Shown in pieces: positions 4,647-30,389 of a stretch of 34,966 bases of DNA. Origin of the DNA: an uncultured Clostridia bacterium (GTDB lineage Bacteria; Bacillota; Clostridia; TANB77; CAG-508); assembly GCA_944393335.1 (NCBI GenBank), contig CALXZV010000002.1:1-34966 (forward strand), read 5' to 3'. Below the pieces are notes generated by a model. The model worked only from the letters and a program-made list of their open reading frames with translations. It had not been told where the DNA came from and did not search any database. A program made the translations under genes and the position numbers. How positions within the stretch are numbered: the stretch's first letter is position 1; each line of letters begins with the position of its first letter.

Positions 4647-6158
4647 TTAATATGCACATATGTAAACTGTATCACCTTCAAATTGAACTTGTTCTTTATT
4701 AAAACTGTCCCAATTTTTGTCTTTAAAGTATTTATCATATATTTCATTTGATGTAGGTAATTCTTCTAGACTTCTCCCTGTATAATAGTTTAACCAGTGC
4801 AATCTAGCATAGTTCGTAACTATTCCCTTTGTATTAAAAGTATTATAGACAAAATTATTATAAACTTCTTCACAATGTTTATCCTTGAAAAACATTACTT
4901 TTTTAAGTATTATACCATTTTTTTGTTCATATTCAAGCATTACAGCATTTATTTTATCAACATATTCTTTGTCTTTTTTACAGGTTATTTGGTTCATATA
5001 CGCTATATTGTAGTAATCAAATAGGTTTATACAAGTTAATACTATAGACAAAATTAATAAAACATACATAAATGGTTTTCTTAACTTTTCACTATTAATA
5101 TTTACATAAAGTAAGAAAATTATTGATATGCCTATTATTGCCCCTATGCCATTTAGAGTCCTAGCAGATAAAGTAATGTTTTTTTGTAAAAAAGTTGGTA
5201 CAATACAAGCAAGTATTGTTAAACATACAATCAAAATATATTTAAATATCATTCTTAATGTAGTAGGACTTTTTTGTAACCCTATCATTATTGTAGTTAT
5301 AATAATTACAATAGCAATTAGCATTTGAGGATAATATCCAAAAGTCATATTGGTTATAGGCCATATGCAAAACATTGTAAATAGGAAAGATAATTTTTCA
5401 AAACTAAAATTAGAGTTTCCTAGTCTTTCTTGCTCATTTCCTGTAATATTGTTACAAAAGTTTAGTACTAATAGTAGCGAGCACAAAACTATTATAATTA
5501 TTGACGCTATTTTAGCAAAATATTTAACCCATTCTTTTATTGGTTTCTTTTTGTCTATTGCAAAATATAACAAACTAAGTGCTATCCACATATTGAGATT
5601 TCCTTGATAGCAAAGCCCCGCTATAAGTATAAGTATTAATGTTTTAGCATATGCCCATTTTTGGTTTTGGTGCAAAGTTTTGGCTGCAATAGTACCTAAT
5701 AATATACCTAAAGACATTATACTATTTTCTATGTATGCAAAATTTTCTACCACTAATGGATTTAAAATTATAAGTGTGGAACCCATTAAAATAATTGCTT
5801 TTACAATATTTAGATGTTCACTTTGTTGTATTCTACTGTCTAAAATTTTTATAATATATGTATAAACATTATAAATTGCAAATGCATATAAAATTACGCA
5901 AACATAATGCACTGCAATTGAATAAGTTTCCATACTTATATTTAACATATCTAAAATCGTTAATATTAAAAAATGTACAATTCTACCATCTCTTAAAGGA
6001 GTAAATTTATAAACACTTATTCCCTCACCAATATTCCAATAAGTATCTGTTATTTTATGTGGAAATAAAAATGGTAAACAAAATATTAATGTTATAAAAA
6101 AAACTACTGTAAATATTTTTAATTTTTCCTTTGTTTCTTTTTCCATTTTAAACCTCAT
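4647..6158 (-). CDS. Polytopic membrane protein, GtrII-like (Glucos_trans_II / GT-C-type) putative polyprenyl-phosphate-sugar-dependent glycosyltransferase
   Basis: 503 aa with many TM helices. First-loop motif TDTY...GR(I)V is shared with the 16543-18063 paralog, as is the C-terminal soluble domain ending NWDSFNKEQVQFEGDTVYICAY. The real start is probably the ATG at 6146 (MEKETKEK): a GAGG lies 8 nt upstream and the upstream gene's TAA ends 1 nt before it. Confidence 0.6.
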   Translation of the reverse strand: MRFKMEKETKEKLKIFTVVFFITLIFCLPFLFPHKITDTYWNIGEGISVYKFTPLRDGRIVHFLILTILDMLNISMETYSIAVHYVCVILYAFAIYNVYTYIIKILDSRIQQSEHLNIVKAIILMGSTLIILNPLVVENFAYIENSIMSLGILLGTIAAKTLHQNQKWAYAKTLILILIAGLCYQGNLNMWIALSLLYFAIDKKKPIKEWVKYFAKIASIIIIVLCSLLLVLNFCNNITGNEQERLGNSNFSFEKLSFLFTMFCIWPITNMTFGYYPQMLIAIVIIITTIMIGLQKSPTTLRMIFKYILIVCLTILACIVPTFLQKNITLSARTLNGIGAIIGISIIFLLYVNINSEKLRKPFMYVLLILSIVLTCINLFDYYNIAYMNQITCKKDKEYVDKINAVMLEYEQKNGIILKKVMFFKDKHCEEVYNNFVYNTFNTKGIVTNYARLHWLNYYTGRSLEELPTSNEIYDKYFKDKNWDSFNKEQVQFEGDTVYICAY

Positions 6159-7539
6159 TTTTTTCCGTCGATATTTTAGAATCTGCTTTTTCTGGCAATT
6201 CTTTTTTAAGCAAATTATCTTGTAACCCCATATATAAAGTTAGCGCTATTTGTATATTTAAAATAGTTATGAATAGTATTCTATTTGTAAAAAAGCAATG
6301 AATATATGAATGATTTTTTATTAAAAAGTACCAGGCAAATGGGAAAATAGCTATTATTATAAATATTAATACTTTTAAAAATTCTATCTTTGAAGGTTTT
6401 ACACATTTTGATTTTTCTAAATATATTTCTCTTACAAGTCCTATTATAGCATAAATTGCAAGCAAAATAATTGTAACAATTATAGCTTTACTCCCCATTT
6501 GATTTATATTAAGAATTATTACTTTTGAATAGTCAATAGCTTGGGAATCACCTGTTCTATATAATATTTGATTTATTGCATCTTTCAAAATATGTTTGTT
6601 TAATGTTATATCTGTAATAATCCATTTTAATGCCCAGCATAGTCCATATCCCACGGCCCATGCTACACAAATTTTTATACAATCTATGTATAGTTTTTTG
6701 TTATTATCTTTTAAATTTAGTAAAACATACAAAGGCAAAGTAAATCCTAAAGTTGCTAAAGGAGTTGTTAGCAAGTCAAAAAAACTTGTGCAAATACCTA
6801 TGCATAAAAATACAGTTGCTGGATTTTTAAACTTGCCATTTTTTAATAAAATAACCATCATTGCAATTAGTGTAATTAAAAAAGTAGTTATTTCATTCAT
6901 TGAATTACAAATTATAAATATATTTAGCATAACAAATGACGCTATGTAAATGATAGCAGTTACTAGATTTAACTTTTTGATTATTAAAAATAATAATGAT
7001 ATACATAGTACCACTGTTAATAAAAGTAATAGCAATCTAATACCACCCAAGTCCATTATTGCTAAAAGAGGTCTTAAAAATATTAGGTATCCATGCCAAT
7101 ATCTAGAATATTCATAAGAATCTACTATTTTGTCATCATGCATTAAGCCATATAGTTCTGCAACTTGAAATGTGTTTTCATTTTTATCAACATAATTAGG
7201 ACTAGTTCCTACATGCTTTTCTATTTCTTCATGTTCATTTAGTGTTTGACCTGGTATATAGTTTTTTCGGTCAAGCATCATTGATTTGTAAGGATGATTG
7301 CTATCTATTGAATAAGCCGTATTTATCATAAGTGCATCTGTAAAATAAAATAGACTTGCTTTACCTAATGGTGCATCAATAACAATTCTTTCACCTTCTC
7401 CAATTAAGATTTCTGATGATGCTTTTACATTTTCTTGCAAATATTTAGAAGGTATTAATGAACTTAAAAATAGTAATGCAATTAAAATTAGCATTGTAAT
7501 TAAAAATGTTAAAATATATTTTACTATAGCTTTAATCAT
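6148..7539 (-). CDS. Polytopic membrane protein of unknown family (possible GT-C-like or polymer-modifying enzyme)
   Basis: 463 aa. One N-terminal TM is followed by a ~130-aa predicted extracytoplasmic segment (FTDALMINTAY ... YEYSRYWHGY), then about 9-10 TM helices. It is tightly packed or translationally coupled with the downstream GtrII-like gene. I could not name a family by eye. Confidence 0.55.
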   Translation of the reverse strand: MIKAIVKYILTFLITMLILIALLFLSSLIPSKYLQENVKASSEILIGEGERIVIDAPLGKASLFYFTDALMINTAYSIDSNHPYKSMMLDRKNYIPGQTLNEHEEIEKHVGTSPNYVDKNENTFQVAELYGLMHDDKIVDSYEYSRYWHGYLIFLRPLLAIMDLGGIRLLLLLLTVVLCISLLFLIIKKLNLVTAIIYIASFVMLNIFIICNSMNEITTFLITLIAMMVILLKNGKFKNPATVFLCIGICTSFFDLLTTPLATLGFTLPLYVLLNLKDNNKKLYIDCIKICVAWAVGYGLCWALKWIITDITLNKHILKDAINQILYRTGDSQAIDYSKVIILNINQMGSKAIIVTIILLAIYAIIGLVREIYLEKSKCVKPSKIEFLKVLIFIIIAIFPFAWYFLIKNHSYIHCFFTNRILFITILNIQIALTLYMGLQDNLLKKELPEKADSKISTEKNEV

Positions 7540-7584
7540 TGTTTTATCCCTTTTATTATTAATATTTCATCACTTTTTTATTAT

Positions 7585-8595
7585 TTAACTTTCCCCATTA
7601 TACTCTAATCCTAAATGTTTATATGCCTCCGGAAGAGCTATTCTTCCCCTTGGCGTTCTAGATATGTAACCTATTTGTATTAAATATGGTTCATATACAT
7701 CTTCTATAGTTGTAACCTCTTCTCCTAAAGTTGTTGCCAAAGTTTCAATTCCAACAGGTTTTCCTTTATACTTTTCTATCATAGTAGTTAAAAGTCTTCT
7801 ATCTATTGTATCTAGTCCCATATCATCTATGTCTAGCTTATTTAATGCTATTTTTGTAATATCCAATGTGATTGTGCCATTTCCAAGAACAGCAGCATAG
7901 TCCCTAACTCTTTTTAAAAGTCTATTTGCAATTCTTGGTGTTCCCCTTGAACGTTTTGCTATTTCCACAGCTGCATCATTTTCTATTGCAATGTCTAAAA
8001 TATTTGCAGACCTTTTTACAATTGTTGTAAGTTCTTCTGCGTTATACAAATCTAATCTTTCAACTATACCAAATCTATCTCTAAGTGGTGTAGTTAATGC
8101 TCCTGCCCTTGTTGTTGCTCCTATTAGAGTAAACTTAGGTAAATCAAGTCTTATGGACCTTGCGCTTGGGCCCTTTCCTATAATTATGTCAAGCGTAAAA
8201 TCTTCAAGTGCAGGATAAAGTATTTCTTCTACACTTTTGTTTAATCTATGTATTTCATCTATAAAAAGCACATCAAATTCAGAAAGATTTGTAAGAAGTG
8301 CTGCTAGGTCTCCAGGCTTTTCTATGGCAGGACCTGATGTTATTTTTAAATTTGAGTTCATCTCATGTGAAATTATGTTTGCAAGTGTGGTTTTACCAAG
8401 TCCAGGTGGTCCATACAATAGTACGTGATCAAGAGGCTCTCCTCTTTTTTTTGCCGCTTCTATATAAACTTTCATATTTTCTTTTACTTTTGTCTGTCCA
8501 ATGTACTCATTTAATGTTTTTGGTCTAAGTACATTTTCTTGCTGAGATTCCATTTCATCTACAACATTTGGACTAATTAAGTTTTCATCATCCAT
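7585..8595 (-). CDS. ruvB: Holliday junction branch-migration helicase RuvB
   Basis: 336 aa. Walker [10 protein letters not shown], Walker [10 protein letters not shown], sensor region TTRAG, and the C-terminal winged-helix section typical of RuvB. Confidence 0.97.
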
Positions 8596-8608: not shown

Positions 8609-9799
8609 TTATTTTTGTCTATTTTGCTTTTTAGTATTTGCTTTATTCTTTATATTTTCTTTATTGCTTTCATTGTTTTCTTCTTTGTTTTTATTTATTG
8701 CATTCTTTTTTTCTTTGTAATTTTGCTTTATACTTTTTATTTCATCATTTTTGAAATTTACCAGCTCTTTGTATCCAATTGCAATAATTGCAATTACAAT
8801 TAATGCAAAAGATAGTGCTTTCCAAATTCCATCATCTATTAAAATTACTGCAAACATTCCAAGTGATGCACTAGCCCCATAAAGTATTGCCACTGCCTGT
8901 TTTTGTGAAAAGCCCCTTTTCATCAATCTATGATGTAAGTGTCCTTTATCTGCTTGAAATACAGCTTTTAGCGATTTGCCTTTTACAATTCTTCTTATTA
9001 TTGCAAATAATGTATCAAATATAGGAAGAGCAAGAACAAGTATTGGAGCAATTAATACAACAAGTGTAACTGTTTTTGCAACTCCAAGAATTGAGATTGT
9101 AGCTAAACTAAATCCCAAAAATTGTGCTCCCACATCGCCTATAAATGTTTTTGCAGGATTTACGTTAAATGGCAAAAAGCCACCAATTGCTCCTGCTAAA
9201 GCTGTTATTAAAATAATTGATATTAATGGAGAATCATTTGTTGAAAATATTATAAGTAAACTTATGCAAGATATAAGTGATACTCCAGAAGATAGGCCAT
9301 CTAGTCCATCAATTAAGTTAATAGCATTTGTTATTCCCACAATCCAACCTATTGTTAGTATAAAATTTAAAACTGGATGAATAACTATTTCATTAATTGT
9401 ATCTATTCTTATTCCAAAAAAGTAAACAATTAATGCAGCTAAAACTTGTCCAATTAACTTTTGCCATGGTTTTAAAGTCTTTACATCATCTGCATATGCA
9501 AATATGCTCAAAACTATTATTCCAAGCAAAAATCCAAGTAGTTTCATTTTGTAATTTTCTTGACCATTTAAGTCTAAATTACCCTCAATTGCCATTGTTA
9601 TTATTAAATAAATAGCCGAAACCAAAAATCCTGCAATTACAGCTATTCCACCAATTCTAGGTACAGGTCTTTTGTTAACCCTTCTATCTGATGGATAATC
9701 TATAGCTCCAACTTTTTTTGCAAGTTTAATTGTATATGGTACCATAACAAATGATGTTATAAATGCTAGTAAAAATGCTATTGCAATATCTCCCCACAT
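8609..9799 (-). CDS. Polyprenyl-phosphate N-acetylhexosamine-1-phosphate transferase (TagO/WecA-like, MraY family), with a K/N-rich C-terminal tail
   Basis: 396 aa and polytopic. Motifs PVPRIGGIA, NAINLIDGLDGLSSG and IGDVGAQFLGF are typical of the WecA/TagO/MraY family. The last ~50 aa are low-complexity lysine/asparagine-rich sequence. Confidence 0.88.
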   Translation of the reverse strand: MWGDIAIAFLLAFITSFVMVPYTIKLAKKVGAIDYPSDRRVNKRPVPRIGGIAVIAGFLVSAIYLIITMAIEGNLDLNGQENYKMKLLGFLLGIIVLSIFAYADDVKTLKPWQKLIGQVLAALIVYFFGIRIDTINEIVIHPVLNFILTIGWIVGITNAINLIDGLDGLSSGVSLISCISLLIIFSTNDSPLISIILITALAGAIGGFLPFNVNPAKTFIGDVGAQFLGFSLATISILGVAKTVTLVVLIAPILVLALPIFDTLFAIIRRIVKGKSLKAVFQADKGHLHHRLMKRGFSQKQAVAILYGASASLGMFAVILIDDGIWKALSFALIVIAIIAIGYKELVNFKNDEIKSIKQNYKEKKNAINKNKEENNESNKENIKNKANTKKQNRQK

Positions 9800-9833: not shown

Positions 9834-11432
9834 TTATTTTTCAGTTTGGAACTTTTTCTTTATGTTATTTATCTTATTATTTATCCATTGTATATTTTCT
9901 TTTACTCCTATACTTGCCAAAGGAATTAATATTACTACATAAGGTAAAACATATCTTGATTTTCCTTCCCAGAATAACTGAAAAGCAAATCCTCCCATAA
10001 ATATAAGTACAAGTAAAATTTGTTCATTTGTTAGGTCTTTATTTCTAAGTATAAGCAATAATGTAGAAGTATATATTATTATTAAAAGCACTTTTCCAAT
10101 CATTACAAAAATAGAGTAATTATTTTTTAAAAAATCAGTCATCTCAATGCATCTATAAAATTCTTCTTCAGTTATTTTGTCAGAATTTAATCCCAAAAGT
10201 TCTGTATTATAATAAATTTCACCAAAAGTTGGTTCTATCCACATAGAAGTTATTTTATTTTTAAAGAACTTACATCCATTAATAGGATTATGAAAGTATT
10301 CATTAATTATAGATAATGCTCTTTGCTTTAACACTTCTTCATCATGCCCATTAAGTTTCCATTGGTCCACATAAGAGTCTACATACCAACCTGGTCCTCT
10401 AAACCCTTCATTTGATATTCCGTGATTTATATGTCCTATTGTAGGAAACTGGTTACTTTTTTCTAATTGTAATCTGTTTATCATATAGTTTTTAACTAAA
10501 TTAGTTGGTAGTAATCCTATAATTATAAATATTATTATAAGTAAAACTTTTGTTATAATATTCATAATCTTTGTGCTTTTTGTGTCATTGCACTCGTTTT
10601 TTATTGATGAAATATATTTTATGCAATCTAAAATTAGATAAATAGTTAATGCTATGAAAAATATTAACATATTTGTTCTACAGTAACATGCCAAGCTTAT
10701 TAATATAGCTGAAATAAACAAGTACCTAGCTTTTTGTAATTTTCCATATTTTATAATGAAATATATAGCAAATACTCCAAAACAAAGTCCTATTAAATCT
10801 CCATAAACAAATGTTGAAAGCATTGATAATGGTATAAATGCAAGTGACAAAAACACAATCATAAATGAGTTTAATTTGTTTTGCTTATTTGATATAGCTT
10901 TTGCAATTAAATACAACCCTAGTACTGTAAATGTATTTGCAATTGCATTTAAATACTGTAATATAAAAACATTTGTTGAGCCACATATCTTAAATATAAA
11001 TGCAAAAAAAGTAATTAATGTAGTTTGATGTGGATAAATTTGTAAATATTCATTTTTAATTAATTCATCTATATTTCCTTCTGCAATTATTTTTGCATCA
11101 TTATATACTTCATATTGGTCAAAAAGAGGAGATGACCTTATTAAATTTATGAATAATATTTGTGCAATTAAATAAAGCATTAATAATGTTGCATAAATTA
11201 TTATTTTTGTATCTCTTTTTACTTTTATATCATTAACCTTGTCTAAAATTAAATATCCTACCACAAAAATAGCTATAAATAATATTATAAACAATAAGTT
11301 ATTTGAAGAAATACTAATTACTTCGCCTTTATTTAATACAGAATTACTTGTATATACTAATATTGTCAATATTGCTATACATATTAGACCTATTATTTGT
11401 AAAATTTTATTTAATCTTTTGTTAGTTTTCAT
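9834..11432 (-). CDS. Polytopic GT-C glycosyltransferase, ArnT/PMT_2-like
   Basis: 532 aa with more than 10 TM helices. The first extracytoplasmic loop SPLFDQYEVYNDAKIIAEGN resembles the acidic DE-type loop of the ArnT/PMT family. It sits directly downstream of two GtrB/ArnC-like synthases. Confidence 0.6.
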   Translation of the reverse strand: MKTNKRLNKILQIIGLICIAILTILVYTSNSVLNKGEVISISSNNLLFIILFIAIFVVGYLILDKVNDIKVKRDTKIIIYATLLMLYLIAQILFINLIRSSPLFDQYEVYNDAKIIAEGNIDELIKNEYLQIYPHQTTLITFFAFIFKICGSTNVFILQYLNAIANTFTVLGLYLIAKAISNKQNKLNSFMIVFLSLAFIPLSMLSTFVYGDLIGLCFGVFAIYFIIKYGKLQKARYLFISAILISLACYCRTNMLIFFIALTIYLILDCIKYISSIKNECNDTKSTKIMNIITKVLLIIIFIIIGLLPTNLVKNYMINRLQLEKSNQFPTIGHINHGISNEGFRGPGWYVDSYVDQWKLNGHDEEVLKQRALSIINEYFHNPINGCKFFKNKITSMWIEPTFGEIYYNTELLGLNSDKITEEEFYRCIEMTDFLKNNYSIFVMIGKVLLIIIYTSTLLLILRNKDLTNEQILLVLIFMGGFAFQLFWEGKSRYVLPYVVILIPLASIGVKENIQWINNKINNIKKKFQTEK

Positions 11433-11450
11433 TTTACTTTTATTTCCCCT

Positions 11451-11547
11451 TTTGTTTTCCGGTTTTAAGTTAGTTTTGTTTTTCCAAATTTAAGATACTT
11501 CTGTTTTTCTAGCTTTAATTTCCTTTTGTCTTCCAGCTTTAAGTTAC
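11451..11547. repeat. Four imperfect tandem repeats of ~24-25 nt filling the intergenic gap
   Basis: Units: TTTGTTTTCCGGTTTTAAGTTAG (11451-11473), TTTTGTTTTTCCAAATTTAAGATAC (11474-11498), TTCTGTTTTTCTAGCTTTAATTTCC (11499-11523), TTTTGTCTTCCAGCTTTAAGTTAC (11524-11547). Consensus is TTTTGTTTTTCCAGCTTTAAGTTAC. Confidence 0.88.
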
Positions 11548-21275: not shown

Positions 21276-21343
21276 ATGATAAATCTAAATATAGCTTTTG
21301 CAGTATATTTTTATAAATCATAAGCTCCTTTCTTTATTTTCTA

Positions 21344-22084
21344 TTATGTTGTCTCTTTTAAGTATTCATCTATTACTTTATTAGTCTCTCCATCCATCTT
21401 TATAACACCTTTATTAAGCCAAATCGCTCTATCACAAAGTTCTCTTGCAGAACCCAAGCTATGTGTAACAAATACCATAGTTTTTCCTTCTGCTTTTAAC
21501 TCTTTCATTTTTGCTAAGCACTTTTCTTGGAAATGTTGGTCACCAACAGATAAAATCTCATCAACAAGTAAAATATCTGCATCAACATTTATTGCAACTG
21601 AAAATGCTAGTCTCATATACATTCCAGAAGAATAAGTCCTTACAGGGTTATCTATATAGCTACCAAGCTCTGAAAACTCTATAATTTGGTCAAGCCTTTT
21701 ATCTATTTCTTTTTTGGTTAAACCAAATATAGAAGCATTAAAATATATATTTTCTCTTCCAGAAAAATCAGGGTGAAAGCCTGCACCAAGCTCTAAAAGT
21801 GATGTTAGCTTTCCGTATGTAGTAATTTTTCCTTTATTAGGGTAAATAATTTTGGTCATAAGTTTAAGTAATGTTGATTTTCCGCTTCCGTTAACACCAA
21901 TTAGTGCAACTGCTTCACCATTTTTTATAGTTAAATTTATATCTTTTAATACTTCTCTTGTTTCTTTTCTATTTCTTTTCCAAAAAAGTAGCTTTTCTTT
22001 TATGCTATTTGCCTTGTCCAAATAAACATCAAAAGTTTTATATACATGTTCTACTACTATTCTGTTTTCATTATTTTTTTGCAT
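21344..22084 (-). CDS. ABC exporter ATP-binding protein (Wzt/TagH-like, short form without a C-terminal carbohydrate-binding domain)
   Basis: 246 aa. Walker A GVNGSGKST, signature YSSGMYMRLAF, Walker B ILLVDEILSVGD, H-loop VTHS. Confidence 0.9.
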   Translation of the reverse strand: MQKNNENRIVVEHVYKTFDVYLDKANSIKEKLLFWKRNRKETREVLKDINLTIKNGEAVALIGVNGSGKSTLLKLMTKIIYPNKGKITTYGKLTSLLELGAGFHPDFSGRENIYFNASIFGLTKKEIDKRLDQIIEFSELGSYIDNPVRTYSSGMYMRLAFSVAINVDADILLVDEILSVGDQHFQEKCLAKMKELKAEGKTMVFVTHSLGSARELCDRAIWLNKGVIKMDGETNKVIDEYLKETT

Positions 22085-22245: not shown

Positions 22246-23583
22246 CTACTTTTTAAAGATTTTTGCAATTTTATTGGCAACTTTAAACCTTTTACTTTCA
22301 TATACTGCTTTTAATTCATCAAAAGTTTTATTATATTCATTTTGCAAATTATTAACTTCTTCTGTTTTTGCTTTTAAAGATTTTTCTAATTGCACTATTT
22401 TATGCTTGTATTCTTCTTTATTTGTAACTTCATTTTGTATATATTCTTCTTTTCTTGCAAACATTTTAAATACCTCAAATATTGCACATTCATAATTAGG
22501 CTTTATTGGTTCATCAAGGTAAATATTATTTGTAATGTTCAATTTTTCTTTTACGAAATTATAATTTTGTAAAAGATCAATATTAGTATTCTTTATTTTG
22601 CTTGCAAGTTCTATTGGCTCACAACTTTTTAAGTTCTCACCACAAAAACCTTCATCAGCTTCTATTTCTATATTTGATAAATCAATTATCTCTTTTGGCT
22701 TATCATACCCAATATTAACTGCAATTCTTTTCATTGCAATTGCCTCTAATAAAACTCTGTCCAACCCCAAAACAATATCATTTTTATCAATTAAATTGAT
22801 TACATCTTTTTGTTGTCCTAAAAATTCTATTTTATCTTTACTTTTCTTTTCACTTGCATAATTTTTTATTTCTTCTAATTTGTTTCCATCTCCAACTATC
22901 ATTAATTTTTTATTTTCAGAATCATAAACGTCAAATATGTCTATTCCATTTTTTACTGACTGTAGTTTATCTGGCGACATTCTTGAAATTAGTATAAAAT
23001 TATCTTTGGTAGTAACATCTTTTGAAGATTTATATTTATTTAAATCTATACTGTTATGAATAACTTTCATTTTTGACGAGTTAATATTGTATCTATTTTT
23101 GACATATTCTTGTACATATTCTGAAATAGAAATAATTTTTTGTGCATTAGCATAATAAAATGGTAATAATTCTTTAAATATTGGGTAATTCTTTTCATAC
23201 CAATCAAAAGCATTATCTTCATTGTCCTGAACGGATCCTTTAGGATTATGCACATAAGCTACATAAGGTATATTTTTTATTATACAAGCTGGTAAAACAG
23301 ATAATATACAAGGTAATTGATTTATAATTACTTGTTCTATGTTATACTTTTCAATTATTTCAATTATTTTCTTCGTACTTTCAATATTTATATTTTTTTC
23401 TAAGGGAAAATTTATATTTTCATGCTGAATTGCATTATTGTCCAATATTTCACTAAAAACTCCTTTTTTGGAAGCAATTACACAATCAATTTTCTTTCTT
23501 TTATATTCTAAAGCTTGATTTATAACTGAAGTTTCTACTCCACCAATTCCCATTTTTTCAAGACAAATTAATATATTTTTCAT
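22246..23583 (-). CDS. GT4-like glycosyltransferase with a ~75-aa C-terminal coiled-coil extension
   Basis: 445 aa. N-terminus KMGIGGVETSVINQA (GT4 N-domain). C-domain MIVGDGNKLEEIK ... LLEAIAMKRIAV. The tail KEEYKHKIVQLEKSLKAKTEEVNNLQNEYNKTFDELKAVYESKRFK is heptad-like and charged. Confidence 0.7.
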   Translation of the reverse strand: MKNILICLEKMGIGGVETSVINQALEYKRKKIDCVIASKKGVFSEILDNNAIQHENINFPLEKNINIESTKKIIEIIEKYNIEQVIINQLPCILSVLPACIIKNIPYVAYVHNPKGSVQDNEDNAFDWYEKNYPIFKELLPFYYANAQKIISISEYVQEYVKNRYNINSSKMKVIHNSIDLNKYKSSKDVTTKDNFILISRMSPDKLQSVKNGIDIFDVYDSENKKLMIVGDGNKLEEIKNYASEKKSKDKIEFLGQQKDVINLIDKNDIVLGLDRVLLEAIAMKRIAVNIGYDKPKEIIDLSNIEIEADEGFCGENLKSCEPIELASKIKNTNIDLLQNYNFVKEKLNITNNIYLDEPIKPNYECAIFEVFKMFARKEEYIQNEVTNKEEYKHKIVQLEKSLKAKTEEVNNLQNEYNKTFDELKAVYESKRFKVANKIAKIFKK

Positions 23584-23592
23584 TTTTCCACC

Positions 23593-24528
23593 TTATTTAT
23601 TTTTCTTTTTTTTAACATCTTTAGTTTTCTTATTTTGTTTGTCTTCTTTAAACATAGTCTTAGTTTTTATAATCCCTGGTATCCACATTATTGCCACAAT
23701 TATTTTATTTATAACTCCAGTTACATTTCTTATTGCATGATCTCTTTCTGCAAGTACTGCAAATAATATGTAATGTTTGTATATGTAAAGTCTTTTCTTT
23801 AGTGTAACACCACTTAAGTCCATTTCTAATATCTCTTTAAAGTATTCATAATAACCTAAAGGATTTTCTTTAAACACTTTTTGTATATTTTTTGAATATC
23901 CATCCTTTTGGTACTCACATATCATAATCGGCTCATTTATGCATATTACATCGTATTCTAGATCCATTTGATGATACATTCTAGATTCTGTAACAAATTT
24001 TTCGTCTGCTTCTAGTTTATATGAAAACTTTTTTCGAATATTACTATTAAAAGCCAATGCTTTTTCACCTGTTATATTTTCCCTAAAATACAAACTAAAC
24101 ATATCACTTCTGTGCAAATTTTCTGGAAAATTATTTCCCATGTTATTGCCATTTTGATCATATTTAAGAAAAACTAATGCATATATTTCATCTGTAAGTA
24201 CGCTTTCATATTTTTCAATTGTATCAAATGCCCCCACTGTAAAATAATCATCAGAGTCACATTCTATTATTACGTCACCGGTTGCATATCTTACTAAATT
24301 ATTAAGTGCTGCCATTTTTCCTTTGTTTTCTTGGTAATAATATTTTATATTAATAATATTTTGCTTTATAAAATTTGTTACTATATATTTTGTTTTATCT
24401 GTTGAACCATCATCCATAACAAGCCATTCAATATCTACATTTGAATTATTATTAACTAAAAGACTTGTATATAATTTATTTAATTTTTCTCCTCTATTGT
24501 ATGCTGGTGTTAGTATTGATATTTTCAT
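23593..24528 (-). CDS. GT2 glycosyltransferase
   Basis: 311 aa. Motifs ISILTPAYNRGEKL, MDDGSTD and ECDSDD, with a lysine-rich C-terminus. Confidence 0.82.
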   Translation of the reverse strand: MKISILTPAYNRGEKLNKLYTSLLVNNNSNVDIEWLVMDDGSTDKTKYIVTNFIKQNIINIKYYYQENKGKMAALNNLVRYATGDVIIECDSDDYFTVGAFDTIEKYESVLTDEIYALVFLKYDQNGNNMGNNFPENLHRSDMFSLYFRENITGEKALAFNSNIRKKFSYKLEADEKFVTESRMYHQMDLEYDVICINEPIMICEYQKDGYSKNIQKVFKENPLGYYEYFKEILEMDLSGVTLKKRLYIYKHYILFAVLAERDHAIRNVTGVINKIIVAIMWIPGIIKTKTMFKEDKQNKKTKDVKKKKNK

Positions 24529-24590: not shown

Positions 24591-25754
24591 TTAAAGTATA
24601 TCTTTTATTTTTCTTATGATTTTTTCTTGTACTTCTTCATTTATATTTTCTAATTTTAAAGCATTTTCATTATTTAAATACTTGATATTATCACTTTTAA
24701 GTTCTTTTTCTAAACCCTTGACTATCCCTTCAAAATTATTATCTAATACTATTGATTTTTTATATCCATTTGCACATTCTTTAGCAGCAGTATTAGTAAG
24801 TATAATTGGTTTATTTAAAATCTTAGCTTCTTCTAATACCATACCATATCCTTCATAATATGAAAGTAAGCAAAAATAATCACAATACTTTATATATGGA
24901 TATGGATTTTCCTTTTGTCCTAATAAAATAAATCTATCTGTTAGGCCTTCCTCATCTATTTCTTTTTGTAGGTTGTATCTTAATGGTCCATCTCCTACAA
25001 TATATATTTTAGTATGTATTCCTCTATCTTCTAAAGCTTTTTGTACTTTTATAAATCTATCTAGTGCTTTTTGTTCAACTAATCTACATACTGTAAGTAA
25101 ATTAATTTCTTTATCTATATATGGAAGTTCTACTTTTTCTTCGGCTTTTTCTAATACTTTTTTATAATCTATATAGTTTCTAATAATTTCTTCATTATCC
25201 TTTTTTGCCCATTTGTATTCTTTATTAAAATCCTTTTGATTTTCTTTACTTACAAATACTAATTTTTTGTATTTTTTATATTCTATTCCATCAACTATTT
25301 TTTTTATTTTAGCCTTTATCCCGCTTCCATATACTTTAGAAATGTCATTATGTATCCAAGCTATATTATTAGTATTTGATTTTACTGCAAATAGCCTTGT
25401 AATAGGTCCTTCTAAAAAAGCTATTTCAGTATCAAAACCTCTTTTCATAATTGCTTCATAAATTTTCTTTTTGTATATTATTAATTTTAATGAAGCTTTT
25501 ATTTTTTCTATTTTAGTTAATTCTTTATATGGCTTTCTATATAAAGCAATTTTTTTAATATTAGAATTTAATTCTTTTTTTAGTTCTCCACCATCATAAA
25601 TTGTAAACACAGTTACGTTATATTCGTAAGAAAGTCTATTTGCTAAATCTACTAATACTCTTTCTGCTCCACCTATTGTTAAACTAGTTATACCAAATAT
25701 TATTTTTTTCAAACTATCACCTCCTAAATGAAAGTTTTTAAATCTAAACATCAT
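24591..25754 (-). CDS. GT4 (GT-B) glycosyltransferase, paralog of 29280-30389
   Basis: Motifs TIGGAERVLVDLAN, IVGDGPLR and YEGYGMVLEEAKILNKPIILT. The likely true start is the TTG at 25712 (LKKIIFGI), with a strong SD AGGAGG 7 nt upstream. The ATG at 25754 has no comparable SD. Confidence 0.8.
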   Translation of the reverse strand: MMFRFKNFHLGGDSLKKIIFGITSLTIGGAERVLVDLANRLSYEYNVTVFTIYDGGELKKELNSNIKKIALYRKPYKELTKIEKIKASLKLIIYKKKIYEAIMKRGFDTEIAFLEGPITRLFAVKSNTNNIAWIHNDISKVYGSGIKAKIKKIVDGIEYKKYKKLVFVSKENQKDFNKEYKWAKKDNEEIIRNYIDYKKVLEKAEEKVELPYIDKEINLLTVCRLVEQKALDRFIKVQKALEDRGIHTKIYIVGDGPLRYNLQKEIDEEGLTDRFILLGQKENPYPYIKYCDYFCLLSYYEGYGMVLEEAKILNKPIILTNTAAKECANGYKKSIVLDNNFEGIVKGLEKELKSDNIKYLNNENALKLENINEEVQEKIIRKIKDIL

Positions 25755-25768: not shown

Positions 25769-27280
25769 TTAATATTTTATTATATCTTTTTTATTATCTT
25801 TGAGCAATTTTTCTTTATTAATATTATCTAGAATCATTATACATACTACAGATATTATGGCAATTAATGATGAGTTAAAGAATATGTAACCAGATAAGAA
25901 TGATAATATAATTAAAAGTCCTAATGCTGAAATTGCCATCAAATATGATGTATCTAATTTTTTCTTTAGCCTTTTTATTACATCTATAATGCCAAATATA
26001 AGTATTGCTAAAATTGGGCCTGCATATAGTAAAAAGCCAAATATTCCAAAGTTAAATAATAAACTTGCTAATTCATTTTCCATTACCATTTCTCTAAAGT
26101 TTGCTTCAAATCCATTTCCAAATAATATTCCTAAAATGCTTTTTTGTTCTAACACTAGATAATAATTATACATTAATTGTTGAAGCCTTGTATTATTGCC
26201 TGCTATATTGTGAATAGTTGTATATTCATTAAGTTTTAGTACTGCATTTTGCTGAGCAACAGACATAAAACCATCTTCTAAAGTTCCATCTAATATACTG
26301 TTTTTAATATCTAGCATATCTCCTGTCATGTGTCCTACTTCTCCATTTGCTTCATCAATAATATCATATTGTGATTCATTCATTTGACTTCTTCTTCTTA
26401 AAGTATTTGATCCAACTAAACCAACTGTAATTACTGCTACTGCTAGCAAAATAAATCCTATTATTGCAATCTTATTTTTACTAAGAAATACTTCTAATGC
26501 AATAAAAACTGCTATTGCAATAAAAAATCCTAAAAGCCCAACTCTTGTCCCAATTAATGCTACTAAGAATATTCCAACTAAAATTAAAACTATTATTGTA
26601 GGTATCCTATATTTTTTATCTTTTATTAAAGGTAGTATTAAAAATGTAGATATACAAAGTATCGCACTTAAACTATTTCCTGATTCTATCCATCCCTTAA
26701 ATCCTATTTGTTCTTCTTCATAAGTGTAAGATGATGTGCCTGTAAGTATTGCTATATATATACTTACAATATATATTGCACACATAATTAAAATAGATAC
26801 TCTTAAGTTAAATACCTTTGTATTTTTTTCATTTTTTATAAATATTTCTTTATTTATATTTTCTTTTTTTACCTCTATATTAGCTTTATTATCTTTTCTC
26901 CAATTTTTATTAATAAACACATAATAAAATACTACTAAATTAAATATTAAGAAAGTATAATTTACTACATACTGAAGTTCCTCGAGTATACCACCATAAG
27001 AGCAACCTGTTAAAAAAGTTTTAGTTACTGCTAAATGAACTATACCATATATTAAATATGTAGTAGCAATACCTGATAAAATTAATTTATGCTTTTTATT
27101 TGCCTTTATAAATATGTAAAAACCTAAAATAATTGGAATAATTGGTCTTATAAATGTTGAAATTGATATATTAGTATCAAATGCATTTCTAAATAGAAAA
27201 CTTGCAATATCTAATATTGGGCAAATAATTATGTAGAAGTATATAATATGCTCCATTTTTATTTTTTTTAATTTGTTCAT
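25769..27280 (-). CDS. O-antigen ligase/polymerase-like polytopic protein (Wzy_C / WaaL-like)
   Basis: 503 aa with more than 10 TM helices. LIGTRVGLLGFFIAI resembles the conserved S/T-R-G-x-L helix of the Wzy_C domain. A ~90-aa extracytoplasmic loop (RRRSQMNESQYDIIDEANGEVGHMTGD...) occupies the usual position. A lysine-rich cytoplasmic insert is also present (KNWRKDNKANIEVKKENINKE). Confidence 0.6.
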   Translation of the reverse strand: MNKLKKIKMEHIIYFYIIICPILDIASFLFRNAFDTNISISTFIRPIIPIILGFYIFIKANKKHKLILSGIATTYLIYGIVHLAVTKTFLTGCSYGGILEELQYVVNYTFLIFNLVVFYYVFINKNWRKDNKANIEVKKENINKEIFIKNEKNTKVFNLRVSILIMCAIYIVSIYIAILTGTSSYTYEEEQIGFKGWIESGNSLSAILCISTFLILPLIKDKKYRIPTIIVLILVGIFLVALIGTRVGLLGFFIAIAVFIALEVFLSKNKIAIIGFILLAVAVITVGLVGSNTLRRRSQMNESQYDIIDEANGEVGHMTGDMLDIKNSILDGTLEDGFMSVAQQNAVLKLNEYTTIHNIAGNNTRLQQLMYNYYLVLEQKSILGILFGNGFEANFREMVMENELASLLFNFGIFGFLLYAGPILAILIFGIIDVIKRLKKKLDTSYLMAISALGLLIILSFLSGYIFFNSSLIAIISVVCIMILDNINKEKLLKDNKKDIIKY

Positions 27281-27293: not shown

Positions 27294-28253
27294 TTATCTC
27301 CAAAATATTCTTAATATTTTCGTATAAATTTTAAAGCTAAAATTATTCATTGTCTTCATAAAAATACCATTTACTGTATTATTTTTCTTAAGTAGCTTAT
27401 TTTTCTTCCAATTAGGAAACTTAATATTTAAGTTTTGCCAAGTTTCAGTTAAAAGTAAGCTTCTTGTTACTTTGTCTGGTATTTGAATTATTCTTTTTAA
27501 CGAACTACATAATAGTATTCTTGCATAAGTGTATTCTATTTGAGTCTCGTATTCATTGTATAACCCTATTTTTTTATAATAGTTAATTACATTATCTAAT
27601 ACTTTAAATATTTGCTTTGTTCTTGCATCTTGCTTATTTACTATTGAATTACCTCTTTGCACATAGTATATAAGTGGTTCTTCTACAAAAGAAAAATTAT
27701 TTATATATGGTAATAGTTTATAGAAAAATTCTACATCTTCATAATACAAACCTACTGGAAATTCTATTTTTTTATTTATTATAATTTCTCTTTTAATAAG
27801 TTTATTCCAAGCAACTACTCTTGCTTTTTCAAACATTTCTTTTTTATCTTTATATCTAAAACCTACATCTATTTTTTCATTGTCAGGATATTTCCATATA
27901 AAATCACATTCAACATAATCACTATTTGTAGCTTTCGCTTTTTCATACATCTTTTGATAAATAGACCTATCTACATAATCATCTGAATCTAAAAATGCTA
28001 CATATTCTCCTGTTGCATATATTAATCCAAAATTTCTAGCACTAGATAATCCTCCGTTTTCTTTTTTTACATATATTATGTTTTTGTAATCTTTTTTAAA
28101 CTGTCTTATTATCTGTTCTGAATTATCTGTAGAGCCGTCATTTACTAATATTATTTCTAAATCATCAATAGTTTGATTTACTAATGATGTTAAACATCTA
28201 GTTATATATTTTTCAACATTATATACTGGAACTATAACACTTACTTTAGGCAT
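27294..28253 (-). CDS. GT2 glycosyltransferase
   Basis: 319 aa. Motifs VSVIVPVYNVEKYITRCLTSLVNQT, NDGSTD and LDSDD. Confidence 0.85.
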   Translation of the reverse strand: MPKVSVIVPVYNVEKYITRCLTSLVNQTIDDLEIILVNDGSTDNSEQIIRQFKKDYKNIIYVKKENGGLSSARNFGLIYATGEYVAFLDSDDYVDRSIYQKMYEKAKATNSDYVECDFIWKYPDNEKIDVGFRYKDKKEMFEKARVVAWNKLIKREIIINKKIEFPVGLYYEDVEFFYKLLPYINNFSFVEEPLIYYVQRGNSIVNKQDARTKQIFKVLDNVINYYKKIGLYNEYETQIEYTYARILLCSSLKRIIQIPDKVTRSLLLTETWQNLNIKFPNWKKNKLLKKNNTVNGIFMKTMNNFSFKIYTKILRIFWR

Positions 28254-28297
28254 TTTGCCTCCTTATATTTTTCATTTATTTATATCTTAATTTTTAA

Positions 28298-29224
28298 TTA
28301 GGAAATTTTTAAGTATAACTTTATATTTATAAGTAAAAGTATCTTTTTAATTAATTGTTTAATATTTCTAACCTTTATATTTCTATACACTTTTCTATTT
28401 TTAAGCTCTTGTATATACCATTTTTGTTCTTTTCCATTTAATTCATTTACTTTTAAAAGTATAGCATTTGTACAATATATACGTACATTTTCTTTTGTGA
28501 AGTTGCTTAAGTTGTAATTTTCTACCGTATTTATAATATTATCATAATGGTATAGGGCATCTTTTGCTTTTTTTATTGTTTTATCCATATTTTTTTCTCT
28601 CATTATGCTTTTGTCTGTTTGAACATAATAATATACGTAATTATCTAACGATACCATTTTATTTGCTTTTAAAATTAATAATGGAAGAAGGCCAAAATCT
28701 TCATGGTATCTATCTTTTTCAAAAAATAGGTTATTATCTATAAATAAACTTTTTTTGATTATATATGACCAAAGAGTATCTAAATATATATCTGTAAAAC
28801 ATAATTTATTAAAAGCATCTTCTCCTGTTGTTACATCAAAAATAGCACCTTTAATTTTTTCCTCTTTATTTTCTTTTACAATGATTCCTTTTCTTTTGAT
28901 TATATCTACACCTTCATTTATGTATTTATCTATTCCTTCAAAATAATTACTAGATACATAATCATCACTATCTACAAAAGTTATATAATCTCCTCTTGCT
29001 TTATCTATTCCAAAGTTTCTTGAATCTGCAACTCCTGTATTTACCTTTTTATAATATCTAATTTTATCTGATGCAAAAAGTTCAACTATTTTTTCGGTAT
29101 TATCTATAGAGCCATCATTAATAAGTATAATTTCATAATCATTATACTGTGTATCTAATATTGAATTTAAACATTTTTCAATTGTTTTTTCTGCATTATA
29201 TGCAGTTATAATGATACTAATCAT
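28298..29224 (-). CDS. GT2 glycosyltransferase
   Basis: 308 aa. Motifs ISIIITAYNAEKTIEKCLNSILDTQ, NDGSID and VDSDD. Confidence 0.85.
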   Translation of the reverse strand: MISIIITAYNAEKTIEKCLNSILDTQYNDYEIILINDGSIDNTEKIVELFASDKIRYYKKVNTGVADSRNFGIDKARGDYITFVDSDDYVSSNYFEGIDKYINEGVDIIKRKGIIVKENKEEKIKGAIFDVTTGEDAFNKLCFTDIYLDTLWSYIIKKSLFIDNNLFFEKDRYHEDFGLLPLLILKANKMVSLDNYVYYYVQTDKSIMREKNMDKTIKKAKDALYHYDNIINTVENYNLSNFTKENVRIYCTNAILLKVNELNGKEQKWYIQELKNRKVYRNIKVRNIKQLIKKILLLINIKLYLKIS

Positions 29225-29279
29225 GAATTATACTTGTATAGCAATGCTATACACTCCTTTCAATAACTTTTTATTATTT

Positions 29280-30389
29280 TTATCCAATAATATCTTTTAT
29301 CTTTTTTACAATATCCTTATTAAACTTTTCAGGATCAAACTTATTAGTTTTTATACCTTTTTCTAGAAAGTTTTTCATCCCCCTATATACACCCTTTTCA
29401 GAGTTTTCCACAACTTGTCCATATACTCCATCTATATCTTTTTTACTATCTGATACATCTGTTGTTATAATTGGTAGCCCTAAAATTTTGGCTTCTACAA
29501 ATACAACAGGATATCCTTCAAATTGCGAAGAAAGTAAAAAGCAATTGCTTAATTTAAAGTATGGATATGGATTCTTTTTTGCTCCTAACATTATTATATT
29601 ATCTAAGCCCTTTTCTTCAATTAATTTTTTATATTCCTTACTATTAGTTCCTTTTCCAACTAAAAGCACTTTAAACTTAAATCCATTTCTATTTAATTTA
29701 TAAGTAGCATCAATTATTCTTGAAATTCTTTTTTGCTTTTCATCATGTCTGCCTACATTTATAAAAATTGGTTCATTACTATCTTTTTTTAAACTTTCTC
29801 CAAATATTTCTTTAAGCTCTTTTTCTGGTATTTTTTCATTAGATAACTTTTTTATTTTTTCATAATCTATTAAGTTATTACAAACAACAGTATTCTTATT
29901 AAGCTCTGGAAATTGTGCAATAAATACTTTCTTATCTAAATCAGATACAAAAACTATTTTCTTAAAATCTTGTATTTTTAAACTATTAAAGAATTTTCTA
30001 TATTGTTTTATGTCATTATCATAAAAATTCATATAATTATTATGAATCCATATTGCGTTATTTTTACTAGCTACTCTTGCTACAAATGATGAAGGCATAC
30101 TGTATGTGGCAAAATCTGCTGAAAAGTCAAATTTATTTTTATATTTTACTTTAAATATTAATTGTTTAATAAAATTAACAAATTTTCTTATTAAAGTAAT
30201 TTTTATACTACTTGGAGTATATGTTATAACTTTAATTTCTTTTGGTAAGTCCTCTAAAAATACTCCCTGCTTTTTTTCTAAAACTAAAGTAATATCGTAT
30301 TCTTTTACTAAATATTTAAGTAAAGTAACTAGAGCTGTTTCTATTCCTCCAACATCTAGTGAATATGCAGAAAAAAGTATTTTTTTCAT
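29280..30389 (-). CDS. GT4 (GT-B) glycosyltransferase; first gene of the glycan operon
   Basis: 369 aa. Motifs DVGGIETALVTLLKYL, LVGKG and FEGYPVVFVEAKILGLPIITTD. SD GAGGT lies upstream of the ATG. Confidence 0.8.
   Translation of the reverse strand: MKKILFSAYSLDVGGIETALVTLLKYLVKEYDITLVLEKKQGVFLEDLPKEIKVITYTPSSIKITLIRKFVNFIKQLIFKVKYKNKFDFSADFATYSMPSSFVARVASKNNAIWIHNNYMNFYDNDIKQYRKFFNSLKIQDFKKIVFVSDLDKKVFIAQFPELNKNTVVCNNLIDYEKIKKLSNEKIPEKELKEIFGESLKKDSNEPIFINVGRHDEKQKRISRIIDATYKLNRNGFKFKVLLVGKGTNSKEYKKLIEEKGLDNIIMLGAKKNPYPYFKLSNCFLLSSQFEGYPVVFVEAKILGLPIITTDVSDSKKDIDGVYGQVVENSEKGVYRGMKNFLEKGIKTNKFDPEKFNKDIVKKIKDIIG

Follow-up and report, generated by a model that had tools for sequence, protein, structure and literature searches.

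A modular, probable surface-glycan neighborhood and an unnamed, widespread family of membrane proteins in an uncultured gut Clostridia species

Susceptibility to phages, recognition by the immune system and fitness in the niche all depend on the surface glycopolymers of bacteria; to our knowledge, almost nothing has been established about those of uncultured gut Clostridia. The closest described systems are the loci for rhamnose-rich cell-wall polysaccharides (cwps, rgp, gac and epa) of lactococci, streptococci and enterococci, which include Csd, Gac and Wps modules of extracytoplasmic glycosylation, the Gtr serotype-conversion modules of Shigella and Salmonella phages, the teichoic-acid glycosylation pairs of the CsbB/YfhO, GtlA/GtlB and YkcC/YkcB type in Bacillus, Listeria and Staphylococcus, and the S-layer glycan (slg) loci of Geobacillus stearothermophilus and Paenibacillus alvei, together with the SLCT-11 locus of C. 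difficile Ox247. Here we compare with these systems a group of genes located between positions 4647 and 30389 of a 34,966-nucleotide stretch of DNA from an uncultured Clostridia bacterium (contig CALXZV010000002.1 of assembly GCA_944393335.1; hereafter, the window, which is, approximately, the whole 34.9-kb contig). In an earlier, sequence-only reading, this span was described as a single 26-kb co-directional glycopolymer locus with an unusually dense glycosylation toolkit and missing canonical partners. The comparisons reported below point instead to a chromosomal glycan neighborhood that appears to consist of an old conserved core and strain-variable decoration modules.

The multi-component systems of extracytoplasmic glycosylation consist of a membrane-anchored sugar synthase of glycosyltransferase (GT) family GT2, a flippase and a polytopic transferase of the GT-C type, usually encoded beside the synthase, and the genes for these components need not be found together or in equal numbers. 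The flippase is typically unlinked and shared, with CflA serving three Csd pairs and GtcA being unlinked from csbB/yfhO (PMC8035078). Synthases can be shared as well: GttA serves two acceptors (PMC8035078), and, in the assembly of lactococcal PSP, the synthase WpsA is shared by the GT-C enzymes WpsH and WpsJ (PMC10821137). Several experimentally supported GT-C proteins have no Pfam domain (PMC8035078), and the genes for LytR-CpsA-Psr (LCP) ligases lie outside the rgp, gac and cwps loci (PMC8035078, PMC10821137). Exported polymers are ligated by LCP enzymes in Gram-positive bacteria and by WaaL in Gram-negative ones. Proteins of the DUF2142 family are candidates for the lactococcal WpsI and WpsJ (PMC12599335), and pairs of GT2 and DUF2142 genes are present in the rgp loci of S. 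thermophilus (PMC9746298). The 24-kb locus of C. difficile Ox247 combines an initiator, GTs, an ABC exporter and a ligase (orf19) acting on the S-layer protein (PMC6254364). A literature search for a characterized clostridial equivalent of the locus described here found none.

The window contains 27 plausible open reading frames (ORFs) of at least 100 amino acids on the coding strand, which were scanned against Pfam and NCBIfam. All 27, including polA, ruvB and rpiA, are on the minus strand, to which all gene coordinates below refer; every gene named in the sequence-only reading was recovered on this strand at the position given there. The family assignments support a glycopolymer locus that appears to be of neither the polyol-phosphate nor the rhamnose type, and we consider it probable that its product is a surface polymer that is primed by a WecA-type enzyme, exported by an ABC transporter and decorated outside the cytoplasm by several multi-component systems.

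The predicted initiator (8609-9799), a part of the conserved core, is indeed a TagO/WecA-type polyprenyl-phosphate N-acetylhexosamine-1-phosphate (HexNAc-1-P) transferase by family assignment (PF00953, 124.6 bits). Its best NCBIfam match is WecA (TIGR02380), which, at 107 bits, falls short of the equivalog cutoff (326), and its substrate specificity is a prediction; the matches in the Protein Data Bank (PDB) are MraY and GPT, but the score of 77 with the mraY model, compared to the cutoff of 192, shows that the protein is not MraY. As proposed earlier, the export genes form a short-form Wzm/Wzt pair (20487-22084), which consists of an ABC-2 permease (20487-21275; ABC2_membrane, PF01061, 88.8 bits; galactan Wzm NF050109, 65 bits) and a Wzt/TagH-type ATPase of 246 amino acids (21344-22084; ABC_tran, PF00005, 74.6 bits) that is 80-95% identical throughout the clade. 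The best NCBIfam matches of the ATPase, both below cutoff, are TagH (NF010066, 205.7 bits) and galactan Wzt (NF050108, 193.8 bits), and, because it has no C-terminal extension, it lacks a carbohydrate-binding module.

Cytoplasmic GT domains were found at the places indicated in the sequence-only reading, although their number is eight (three GT4, three GT2 and two in a fusion protein) rather than nine. The conserved cytoplasmic GT block opens with GT4a (29280-30389; PF00534, 77.8 bits), followed by the soluble GT2 enzymes GT2a (28298-29224; PF00535, 106 bits, no transmembrane (TM) segment) and GT2b (27294-28253; PF00535, 132.3 bits), and, further downstream, by GT4b (24591-25754; PF00534, 77.7 bits), GT2c (23593-24528; PF00535, 79.4 bits), the strain-restricted GT4c (22246-23583; PF13439, 64.4 bits) and a two-domain GT2-GT4 enzyme (18089-20401; PF00535 in residues 31-140, PF00534 in residues 472-612), the candidate backbone polymerase. 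The loci and strain types of relatives that were used in the comparisons are denoted by L-numbers. In L101, a locus of another species on a 1.52-Mb contig, the order of the block from GT4a to the GT2-GT4 gene is kept, with 55-94% identity except for the GT2-GT4 enzyme itself (43%); the individual values are 85% for GT4a, 88% for GT2a, 89% for GT2b (84% in L002) and 55% for GT4c. GT4b is 75-88% identical in other strains and species, whereas GT4c is missing from the strain types L002, L004 and L007 and is 60% identical in L008. Homologs of GT2c adjoin wzt, wzm and wecA in more distant relatives as well.

Three further GT2 enzymes each carry two C-terminal hydrophobic helices (approximately, residues 233-251 and 266-285), which agrees with their earlier description as polyprenyl-phosphate-sugar-synthase-like proteins with C-terminal TM hairpins, and they match GtrB, ArnC and dolichol-phosphate-mannose synthase (DPMS) rather than processive or soluble GT2 enzymes. 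The first, syn1 (11553-12497), is an ortholog of GtrB, of the polyprenyl-phosphate-glucose-synthase type: it matches Synechocystis GtrB (5EKP) over the full length (residues 4-307 of 314, E = 2e-96) as well as ArnC (E = 9e-48), and is 77-81% identical across the clade, which exceeds the conservation of RuvB on the same contigs. The second, syn2 (12535-13467), is of the GtrB/CsbB/PgfS type (PgfS NF047588, 335 bits, below cutoff; ArnC, 174 bits); it is 44% identical to the syn1 orthologs and resembles syn1 in its NCBIfam profile, with matches to the PgfS and ArnC models. The third, syn3 (13503-14450), is a Dpm1/AglJ-type polyprenyl-phosphate-hexose synthase (PF00535; AglJ TIGR04182, 207.6 bits, below cutoff) that matches the Pyrococcus DPMS (5MLZ, E = 4e-8).

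Of the five large polytopic proteins that had been proposed as GT-C-like, four are supported as such by family or fold rather than matching transporters or unrelated families, and pt463, discussed below, is the exception. Three have Pfam matches: a GtrII-family protein (16543-18063; Glucos_trans_II, PF14264, 69.3 bits compared to the cutoff of 30; about 12 TM segments), a DUF2142-family protein of 684 amino acids (14468-16522; PF09913, 204.9 bits) and a PMT_2-family protein (9834-11432; PF13231, 33.8 bits compared to the cutoff of 26.1; about 13 TM segments). The DUF2142 gene starts with the ATG at 16522, which is preceded by a ribosome-binding site, and not with the TTG at 16555; public assemblies record only the 684-residue product, and the 695-residue form with the TTG start gave no exact match there. 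The fourth protein, pt499 (4647-6146), has no Pfam match of its own, and a search of the PDB with its profile gave nothing useful, but a 40%-identical homolog carries PF14264, and the profile of its family can be aligned over the entire length with the GtrII protein of the window (hhalign probability 100, E = 4.7e-58; hmmsearch E = 5e-96), which identifies pt499 as a divergent GtrII paralog. The AlphaFold2 model of pt499 (predicted local distance difference test (pLDDT) score, 85) agrees: the top Foldseek matches are PglB, STT3 and Pmt4, the first six at probabilities of 0.99-1.0, with ArnT and ALG3 further down.

Combining gene content and gene order, the most likely partner of syn1 would be both GtrII-family proteins, given that a GtrB ortholog together with two GtrII-family transferases reproduces the classical Gtr pairing. 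The most likely partner of syn2 would be the PMT_2 protein because the two genes occur together: within the species, syn2 was found only in the strain type of the window and is missing from L002, L004, L007 and L008, the PMT_2 gene likewise occurs only in the window strain type and is missing from the same four and from L015, and L101 holds an 84%-identical syn2 ortholog that overlaps a PMT2-like gene. For syn3, the most likely partners would be the DUF2142 protein, whose gene is separated from syn3 by 17 nt, and pt463. The gap between syn1 and the PMT_2 gene is 120 nt and is filled by four imperfect copies of a 25-nt unit (11449-11547; sense strand, approximately AACTTAAAGCTGGAAAAACAAAAG) that has no Rfam match and adjoins the strain-variable PMT_2 cassette.

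The fifth polytopic protein, pt463 (6148-7539), is the most interesting and the sole new-looking element of the locus. It has no Pfam or NCBIfam match, even at E = 10, nine of ten distant members of its family have no Pfam match, a PDB search with its profile gave nothing useful, and the NCBI clusters of its relatives are named solely 'hypothetical protein'. A full HMMER scan places in this family 4,705 clusters at 50% identity, 2,464 of them with E ≤ 1e-30. The family-wide alignment reveals D68, in the loop after the first TM segment, conserved in at least 90% of the members, along with Y144, R146, Y147, W148, H149, G150, R168, D255, P260, G297, Y298, W302, K305, W306, R328, P400, W403, H410, H414 and R420; many of these residues fall in a loop of about 130 amino acids after the first TM segment that, by the positive-inside rule, would face outward. 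In at least 13 metagenome loci, homologs of pt463 lie directly downstream of syn3 orthologs, with an overlap of about 8 nt, and the two genes are also adjacent in metagenome-assembled genomes (MAGs) labeled Aerococcus (L098, 62% identity) and Bacteroidales (L100, 59%), the latter being a stand-alone pair with no other polytopic protein nearby. Given the enzyme-like conserved residues and the coupling to a synthase, the function that we regard as most likely for pt463, at somewhat better than an even chance, is that of a polyprenyl-phosphate-sugar-dependent transferase. The wider proposal, which we put forward tentatively and at slightly less than an even chance, is that pt463 represents a large unmodeled family of such membrane glycosyltransferases, dedicated partners of bacterial Dpm1/AglJ-type synthases, with either a very divergent GT-C fold or a new one.

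With respect to syn3 itself, the window protein is 59-62% identical to its counterparts in L098 and L100, compared to 48-53% in closer Clostridia relatives, which hints at horizontal transfer of a two-gene syn3/pt463 module. Two unusual members of the pt463 family were also encountered, namely, P0257 (1276 amino acids), in which a pt463-family domain (residues 1-445) is fused to a YfhO GT-C domain (464-1225), and P0144 (916 amino acids), in which the pt463 domain is duplicated in tandem; each is a singleton on a short contig, that of the fusion being a 6.8-kb contig of a Logan assembly, and may be an artefact.

A further gene of the span, Olig (25769-27280), encodes a polytopic protein of 503 amino acids of the O-antigen-ligase/Wzy superfamily (O-antigen_lig, PF13425, 133.7 bits) and had been overlooked in the sequence-only reading, as had ruvB. 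Olig also matches Wzy_C (22 bits) and the repeat-unit polymerase model TIGR04370 (39.5 bits compared to the cutoff of 40), and has about 11 TM segments and a single loop of about 115 amino acids (residues 295-410). Its full-length homologs range from 99% down to 49% identity, which is unusually high conservation for a Wzy, and some of them additionally match the Wzy family PF14296. A PDB sequence search produced no match to the solved WaaL or PglL. Olig is a candidate ligase or polymerase.

When compared with the described systems, the locus resembles the cwps, rgp, gac and epa loci, with which it shares TagO/WecA-type priming, Wzm/Wzt-type (RgpCD-like) export, a multi-domain polymerizing GT, anchored GT2 synthases paired with GT-C proteins including DUF2142, a division into conserved and strain-variable parts, and flippase and LCP genes that are often unlinked. 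Unlike those loci, it has no rml genes and no rhamnosyltransferases, so that its backbone is not a rhamnan; it also has no Wzx or GacJ/WpsB-type activator in cis, and it brings together three synthases and four or five polytopic transferases, an Olig gene and an embedded ruvB in an uncultured Clostridia host. With the Gtr modules, it shares the GtrB ortholog and the two GtrII-family proteins, in an arrangement of one common synthase and several type-specific transferases; in contrast to these modules, it has no GtrA in the window and is chromosomal rather than phage-borne, the acceptor is not the O-antigen of lipopolysaccharide (LPS), and the host is presumably monoderm, being a member of Clostridia. 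As in the CsbB/YfhO-type pairs, the gene for a polytopic transferase adjoins that for a GT2 synthase; these pairs include PMT_2-type members as well as members without a Pfam domain, and their GtcA flippase is unlinked and shared, but the window encodes no YfhO-family member and no genes for a polyol-phosphate teichoic acid. Similarly, the slg and Ox247 loci are single co-directional clusters of about 20-25 kb in Firmicutes with an initiator, GTs, a two-component ABC exporter and a Wzy_C/O-antigen-ligase protein, but they carry rml, adjoin an S-layer gene, contain no synthase/GT-C modules, and have an initiator of the galactose-phosphotransferase type rather than the WecA type. The pt463 family is not among the described GT-C families.

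The chemistry outlined in the sequence-only reading is supported by these scans. No match to Glyphos_transf or to cytidylyltransferase families (TagB/TagF, TagD/TarIJ) was found among the window proteins, which is in line with the proposal that the product is not a classical polyol-phosphate teichoic acid, and the Rml families are equally absent from the window. The galE gene (86-1087; TIGR01179, 470 bits compared to the cutoff of 262) is, as had been noted, the only one for a nucleotide-sugar enzyme, the dTDP-glucose dehydratase models scoring far below cutoff on its product.

The division of the locus into old and variable parts emerges from the comparison with relatives. Distant homologs of pt463 (33-57% identity) are found in the order [rpiA]-wecA-[syn1 + PMT_2-like]-ruvB-[syn3]-pt463 ... 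polA-SLT-galE, and the recurrence of this neighborhood indicates that wecA-ruvB-pt463 and polA-SLT-galE represent old synteny. The genes rpiA and wecA are immediate neighbors in minimal relatives, and further relatives have wzt, wzm and a GT2c homolog next to wecA. Within the species, where the baseline of comparison is 98-99% identity for ruvB and 97-100% for the DUF2142 gene, Olig is only 70% and the GtrII protein 79% identical, the GT2-GT4 allele is swapped (42-43% identity, compared to 89-100% for the flanking genes of the same strains), and the strains L002-L004 have an unrelated polytopic protein of 630 amino acids in place of pt499. Such gene gain and loss, together with allele swaps within one species, is characteristic of a locus that diversifies surface antigens. 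A recent arrival of the GT/ABC block, as an island between rpiA and wecA, was rejected because the order of the block is conserved in another species and wzt/wzm adjoin wecA in further relatives; the block is an old but plastic locus. An O-antigen locus of a diderm, LPS-producing organism was rejected as well, given that the contigs of relatives carry Spo0A and a germination protease and the records are labeled Clostridia. A 34.9-kb scaffold from a gut metagenome is nearly identical to the window, and, in the closest genome records, the DUF2142 protein is 97% identical in MAGs labeled 'uncultured Clostridia bacterium' and 87% identical in those labeled 'uncultured Clostridium sp.'.

The same comparisons do not support the view of the span as a single co-directional unit. 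It is split by ruvB (7585-8595; NF000868, 528.7 bits compared to the cutoff of 282; domains RuvB_N, AAA_lid_4 and RuvB_C), a housekeeping gene for the Holliday-junction helicase that, although embedded in the span, is not part of the glycan machinery, and co-directionality is no evidence of a single operon because the whole window is one-stranded (27 of 27 ORFs); the GC skew is negative throughout the entire 35 kb. Scans for promoters and terminators, which found no terminator-like site on the coding strand, returned counts at the chance level and are uninformative with respect to operon boundaries. The span is a chromosomal glycan neighborhood of an uncultured gut Clostridia species rather than a single insulated operon of 26 kb.

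The assignments by family and fold, the order of the genes, the variation among strains and the synteny were read directly from the data and, taken together, suggest the following course of synthesis, in which the order of substrates, the pairings, the identities of the sugars, the acceptor and the flipping step are as we infer them. Undecaprenyl phosphate would be primed with HexNAc-1-P by the WecA/TagO-type enzyme, a primer or adaptor would be built by the soluble GT2 and GT4 enzymes, and the backbone would then be polymerized at the cytoplasmic face by the two-domain GT2-GT4 enzyme and exported in its lipid-linked form by the short-form Wzm/Wzt. The three anchored synthases would load sugars onto undecaprenyl phosphate, a flippase encoded elsewhere would flip these lipid-sugars, and four or five polytopic transferases would add side branches outside the membrane, to the polymer and possibly to other acceptors. 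At the end, the polymer could be attached to peptidoglycan by an LCP enzyme encoded elsewhere, or Olig could carry out the attachment as an in-locus ligase, by analogy with C. difficile Ox247 and the Geobacillus S-layer glycan loci. By swapping the polymerase allele and gaining or losing synthase/GT-C cassettes, strains would turn the locus into a generator of surface-glycan diversity.

Several observations weigh against this course of synthesis. No GtrA, Wzx/Polysacc_synt, MurJ or LCP (PF03816) protein is encoded among the 27 ORFs of the window, so that neither a flippase nor an LCP ligase is at hand, and no gap could hold a gene of the size of gtrA, the largest (348 nt, 31827-32174) containing no ORF of 40 or more amino acids. 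The sequence-only reading, which had correctly reported the absence from the window of a gtrA-sized gap and of LCP, TagB/TagD/TagF and rml genes, took these missing partners and the ratio of three synthases to five GT-C candidates for anomalies. That impression arose from a comparison with minimal textbook modules and from the two overlooked genes; with unlinked or shared flippases, unlinked LCP genes and shared synthases on record (PMC8035078, PMC10821137), neither is anomalous, and three donors feeding five transferases explain the ratio without anything unusual. Other points concern the locus itself: wecA is a conserved core gene whose dedication to this polymer is assumed, and the 6-kb flanks that were read around it in some relatives contain no GT/ABC block; the synthase-transferase pairings are drawn from adjacency and co-occurrence alone; sequence matches leave Olig a candidate for either ligase or polymerase; GT-C membership of pt463 is not demonstrable from profiles or predicted fold; and a glycan structure is being predicted from genes for an uncultured organism. 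Finally, the acceptor could be a protein or a lipid instead of a wall polysaccharide.

The last of these points leads to an alternative that we consider unlikely, although less so than the others discussed here, namely, O-glycosylation of a protein, such as an S-layer protein, whereby a WecA-primed, ABC-exported glycan would be moved en bloc from undecaprenyl pyrophosphate to Ser, Thr or Tyr by Olig acting as an O-oligosaccharyltransferase, with the GT-C proteins decorating the glycan or the protein and no need for an LCP ligase. Geobacillus, Paenibacillus and C. difficile Ox247 have S-layer glycan loci with a matching set of genes (PMC6254364), and the two GtrB-type synthases resemble S. mutans PgfS (322-335 bits, below cutoff), but the window contains no S-layer, SLH/CWB2 or other obvious acceptor gene, although the acceptor of such a locus is usually encoded nearby, the sole neighboring secreted or anchored protein (30555-31826) being a familyless orphan that was not found elsewhere. 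Olig itself points both ways: its PF13425 score of 133.7 bits, the absence from the window of a Wzx that could supply a Wzy polymerase, and the full-length conservation of its orthologs (49-99% identity), unlike that of the hypervariable Wzy, are all compatible with a transferase, whereas the PF14296 matches of some homologs, the TIGR04370 score just under the cutoff and the lack of a sequence match to solved WaaL or PglL are not what would be expected of one. The matches to PF14296 and TIGR04370 also speak for a lactococcal-type dual-chain assembly, a still more doubtful alternative, in which an ABC-exported backbone would receive a second chain, an oligo- or polysaccharide that a synthase and soluble GTs assemble on undecaprenyl (mono)phosphate; this chain would be flipped by an unlinked Wzx, polymerized by Olig or the DUF2142 protein and grafted on by a GT-C. 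The DUF2142 protein would fit this assembly because such proteins are the proposed polymerase and transferase, WpsI/WpsJ, of lactococcal cwps (PMC12599335, PMC10821137), and the excess of GT-C proteins over synthases recalls WpsA/WpsH/WpsJ; moreover, the Olig gene lies amid six soluble GT genes, upstream of and apart from wzt/wzm and the GT2-GT4 gene. However, this joint arrangement of the GT block and the ABC genes is conserved across species and fits one pathway equally well, no GacJ/WpsB-like small activator is present, and neither Wzx nor MurJ is encoded in the window, whereas the loci of lactococci and S. thermophilus carry such a gene in cis (PMC9746298). The same absence of Wzx/MOP from the window, despite the presence of a Wzy/WaaL-superfamily protein, argues against a Wzx/Wzy pathway.

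For pt463, too, the transferase function has a competitor, although one that we consider improbable, namely, that the protein is a lipid-sugar flippase, or an accessory of one, and supplies the very component that is missing from the window; the sequence-only reading had named flipping by one of the unassigned polytopic proteins as an alternative. It is the only familyless polytopic protein of the locus, and its gene is coupled across phyla to that of a polyprenyl-phosphate-sugar synthase; in known systems, however, the slot next to the synthase in a stand-alone pair such as that in L100 belongs to a GT-C, and the presumably outward-facing loop of about 130 amino acids and the family-wide D68, Y144, R146, Y147, W148, H149, D255, K305, R328, H410 and H414 are enzyme-like, unlike GtrA or MOP proteins. 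The metagenome protein in which a pt463 domain is joined with the YfhO GT-C domain would fit such a flippase role, but it is one record that may be an artefact. Structural comparison of the AlphaFold2 model (pLDDT 86) found no significant PDB fold: the Foldseek matches are mostly noise of G-protein-coupled receptors and the major facilitator superfamily, and the only neighbors with low root-mean-square deviation are the GT-C proteins AftD (probability 0.54, query TM-score 0.30) and EmbC (0.15), with TM-scores of about 0.3 and E above 1. These matches count against a flippase, but in view of their weakness, the description of pt463 as a demonstrated GT-C was rejected, and hhalign detected no relationship between the pt463 family and the pt499 family, the DUF2142 protein or the PMT_2 protein. 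The GT-C fold is marked by a conserved N-terminal TM module and a catalytic acidic residue in the first loop outside the membrane; D68 of pt463 lies in the loop after its first TM segment. The claim of five GT-C-like proteins in the sequence-only reading therefore stands for four, and a transferase of uncertain fold remains our preferred reading of pt463.

The remaining genes of the window flank the glycan genes. Downstream are polA (1721-4483) and SLT (1091-1663), followed by galE, and upstream are the N-terminally anchored orphan (30555-31826), a truncated PDDEXK_2 (Rpn-type) gene of 127 amino acids (32175-32558; profile positions 86-198 of 229), rpiA (32626-33267) and a gene for an AAA_14/DUF4143 ATPase (33279-34586), all except the orphan assigned by the family scans. 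The orphan product (423 amino acids) is anchored by an N-terminal TM segment, contains a linker rich in Asn, Ser and Gly, matches no Pfam or NCBIfam model and was absent from public records under the three start codons tried, including the 423- and 420-residue forms; it could be located at the surface and might serve as an acceptor of the glycan. An exact-product look-up in public assemblies retrieved no rpiA product and found the AAA_14 product solely on a 2-kb contig.

Several features of the DNA itself were recorded along the way, none of which matches Rfam, a scan that returned zero hits anywhere in the window. The ruvB gene has no ruvA beside it and follows the WecA-type gene at a distance of 13 nt; wecA and ruvB adjoin each other in nearly all relatives, and this pair, in most cases with a gene of the pt463 family behind it, is kept on many contigs of gut Clostridia (L009-L096), down to RuvB identities of about 65-70%. 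At its C-terminus, the WecA-type protein carries a tail of about 45 amino acids that is rich in Lys, Asn and Glu and is encoded at the 3' end of the gene (8609-8760) by imperfect repeats of 18-34 nt (8630-8737); the protein is 396 or 401 amino acids long depending on the strain. In polA, a 39-nt (13-amino-acid) in-frame tandem repeat (3420-3510; 2.3 copies, 92% matches) encodes ...DLAENLAATKNS... in the linker of the protein; PolA is 920, 907 or 894 amino acids long by strain, and these steps of 13 suggest that the copy number of the repeat varies among strains. Between rpiA and the GT block (31827-32558), the truncated PDDEXK_2 gene is accompanied by an (AT)10.5 microsatellite (32002-32022), a site that is possibly a recombination scar, given that relatives have rpiA beside wecA at this place. 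About four imperfect tandem repeats of 32-33 nt (34656-34787) lie in non-coding DNA upstream of the AAA_14/DUF4143 gene.

This is a real and well-organized glycopolymer neighborhood, although conceptually an ordinary one, and what makes it worth following up is the swapping of cassettes and the pt463 family. Should none of the above hold, it would be one more uncharacterized polysaccharide gene cluster. If the proposed course of synthesis is correct, the logic known from streptococci and lactococci, that is, an ABC-exported backbone, modular GT2/GT-C decoration and cassette swapping, would also operate in low-GC Clostridia, with non-rhamnose chemistry, and the locus supplies concrete, if putative, synthase-transferase pairings for this logic. 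If the proposal on pt463 is true, this protein would make for a fifth module of extracytoplasmic glycosylation in the window, one of a new kind, and its coupling with syn3 across distant bacteria would offer a defined target for the annotation of thousands of 'hypothetical' membrane proteins.

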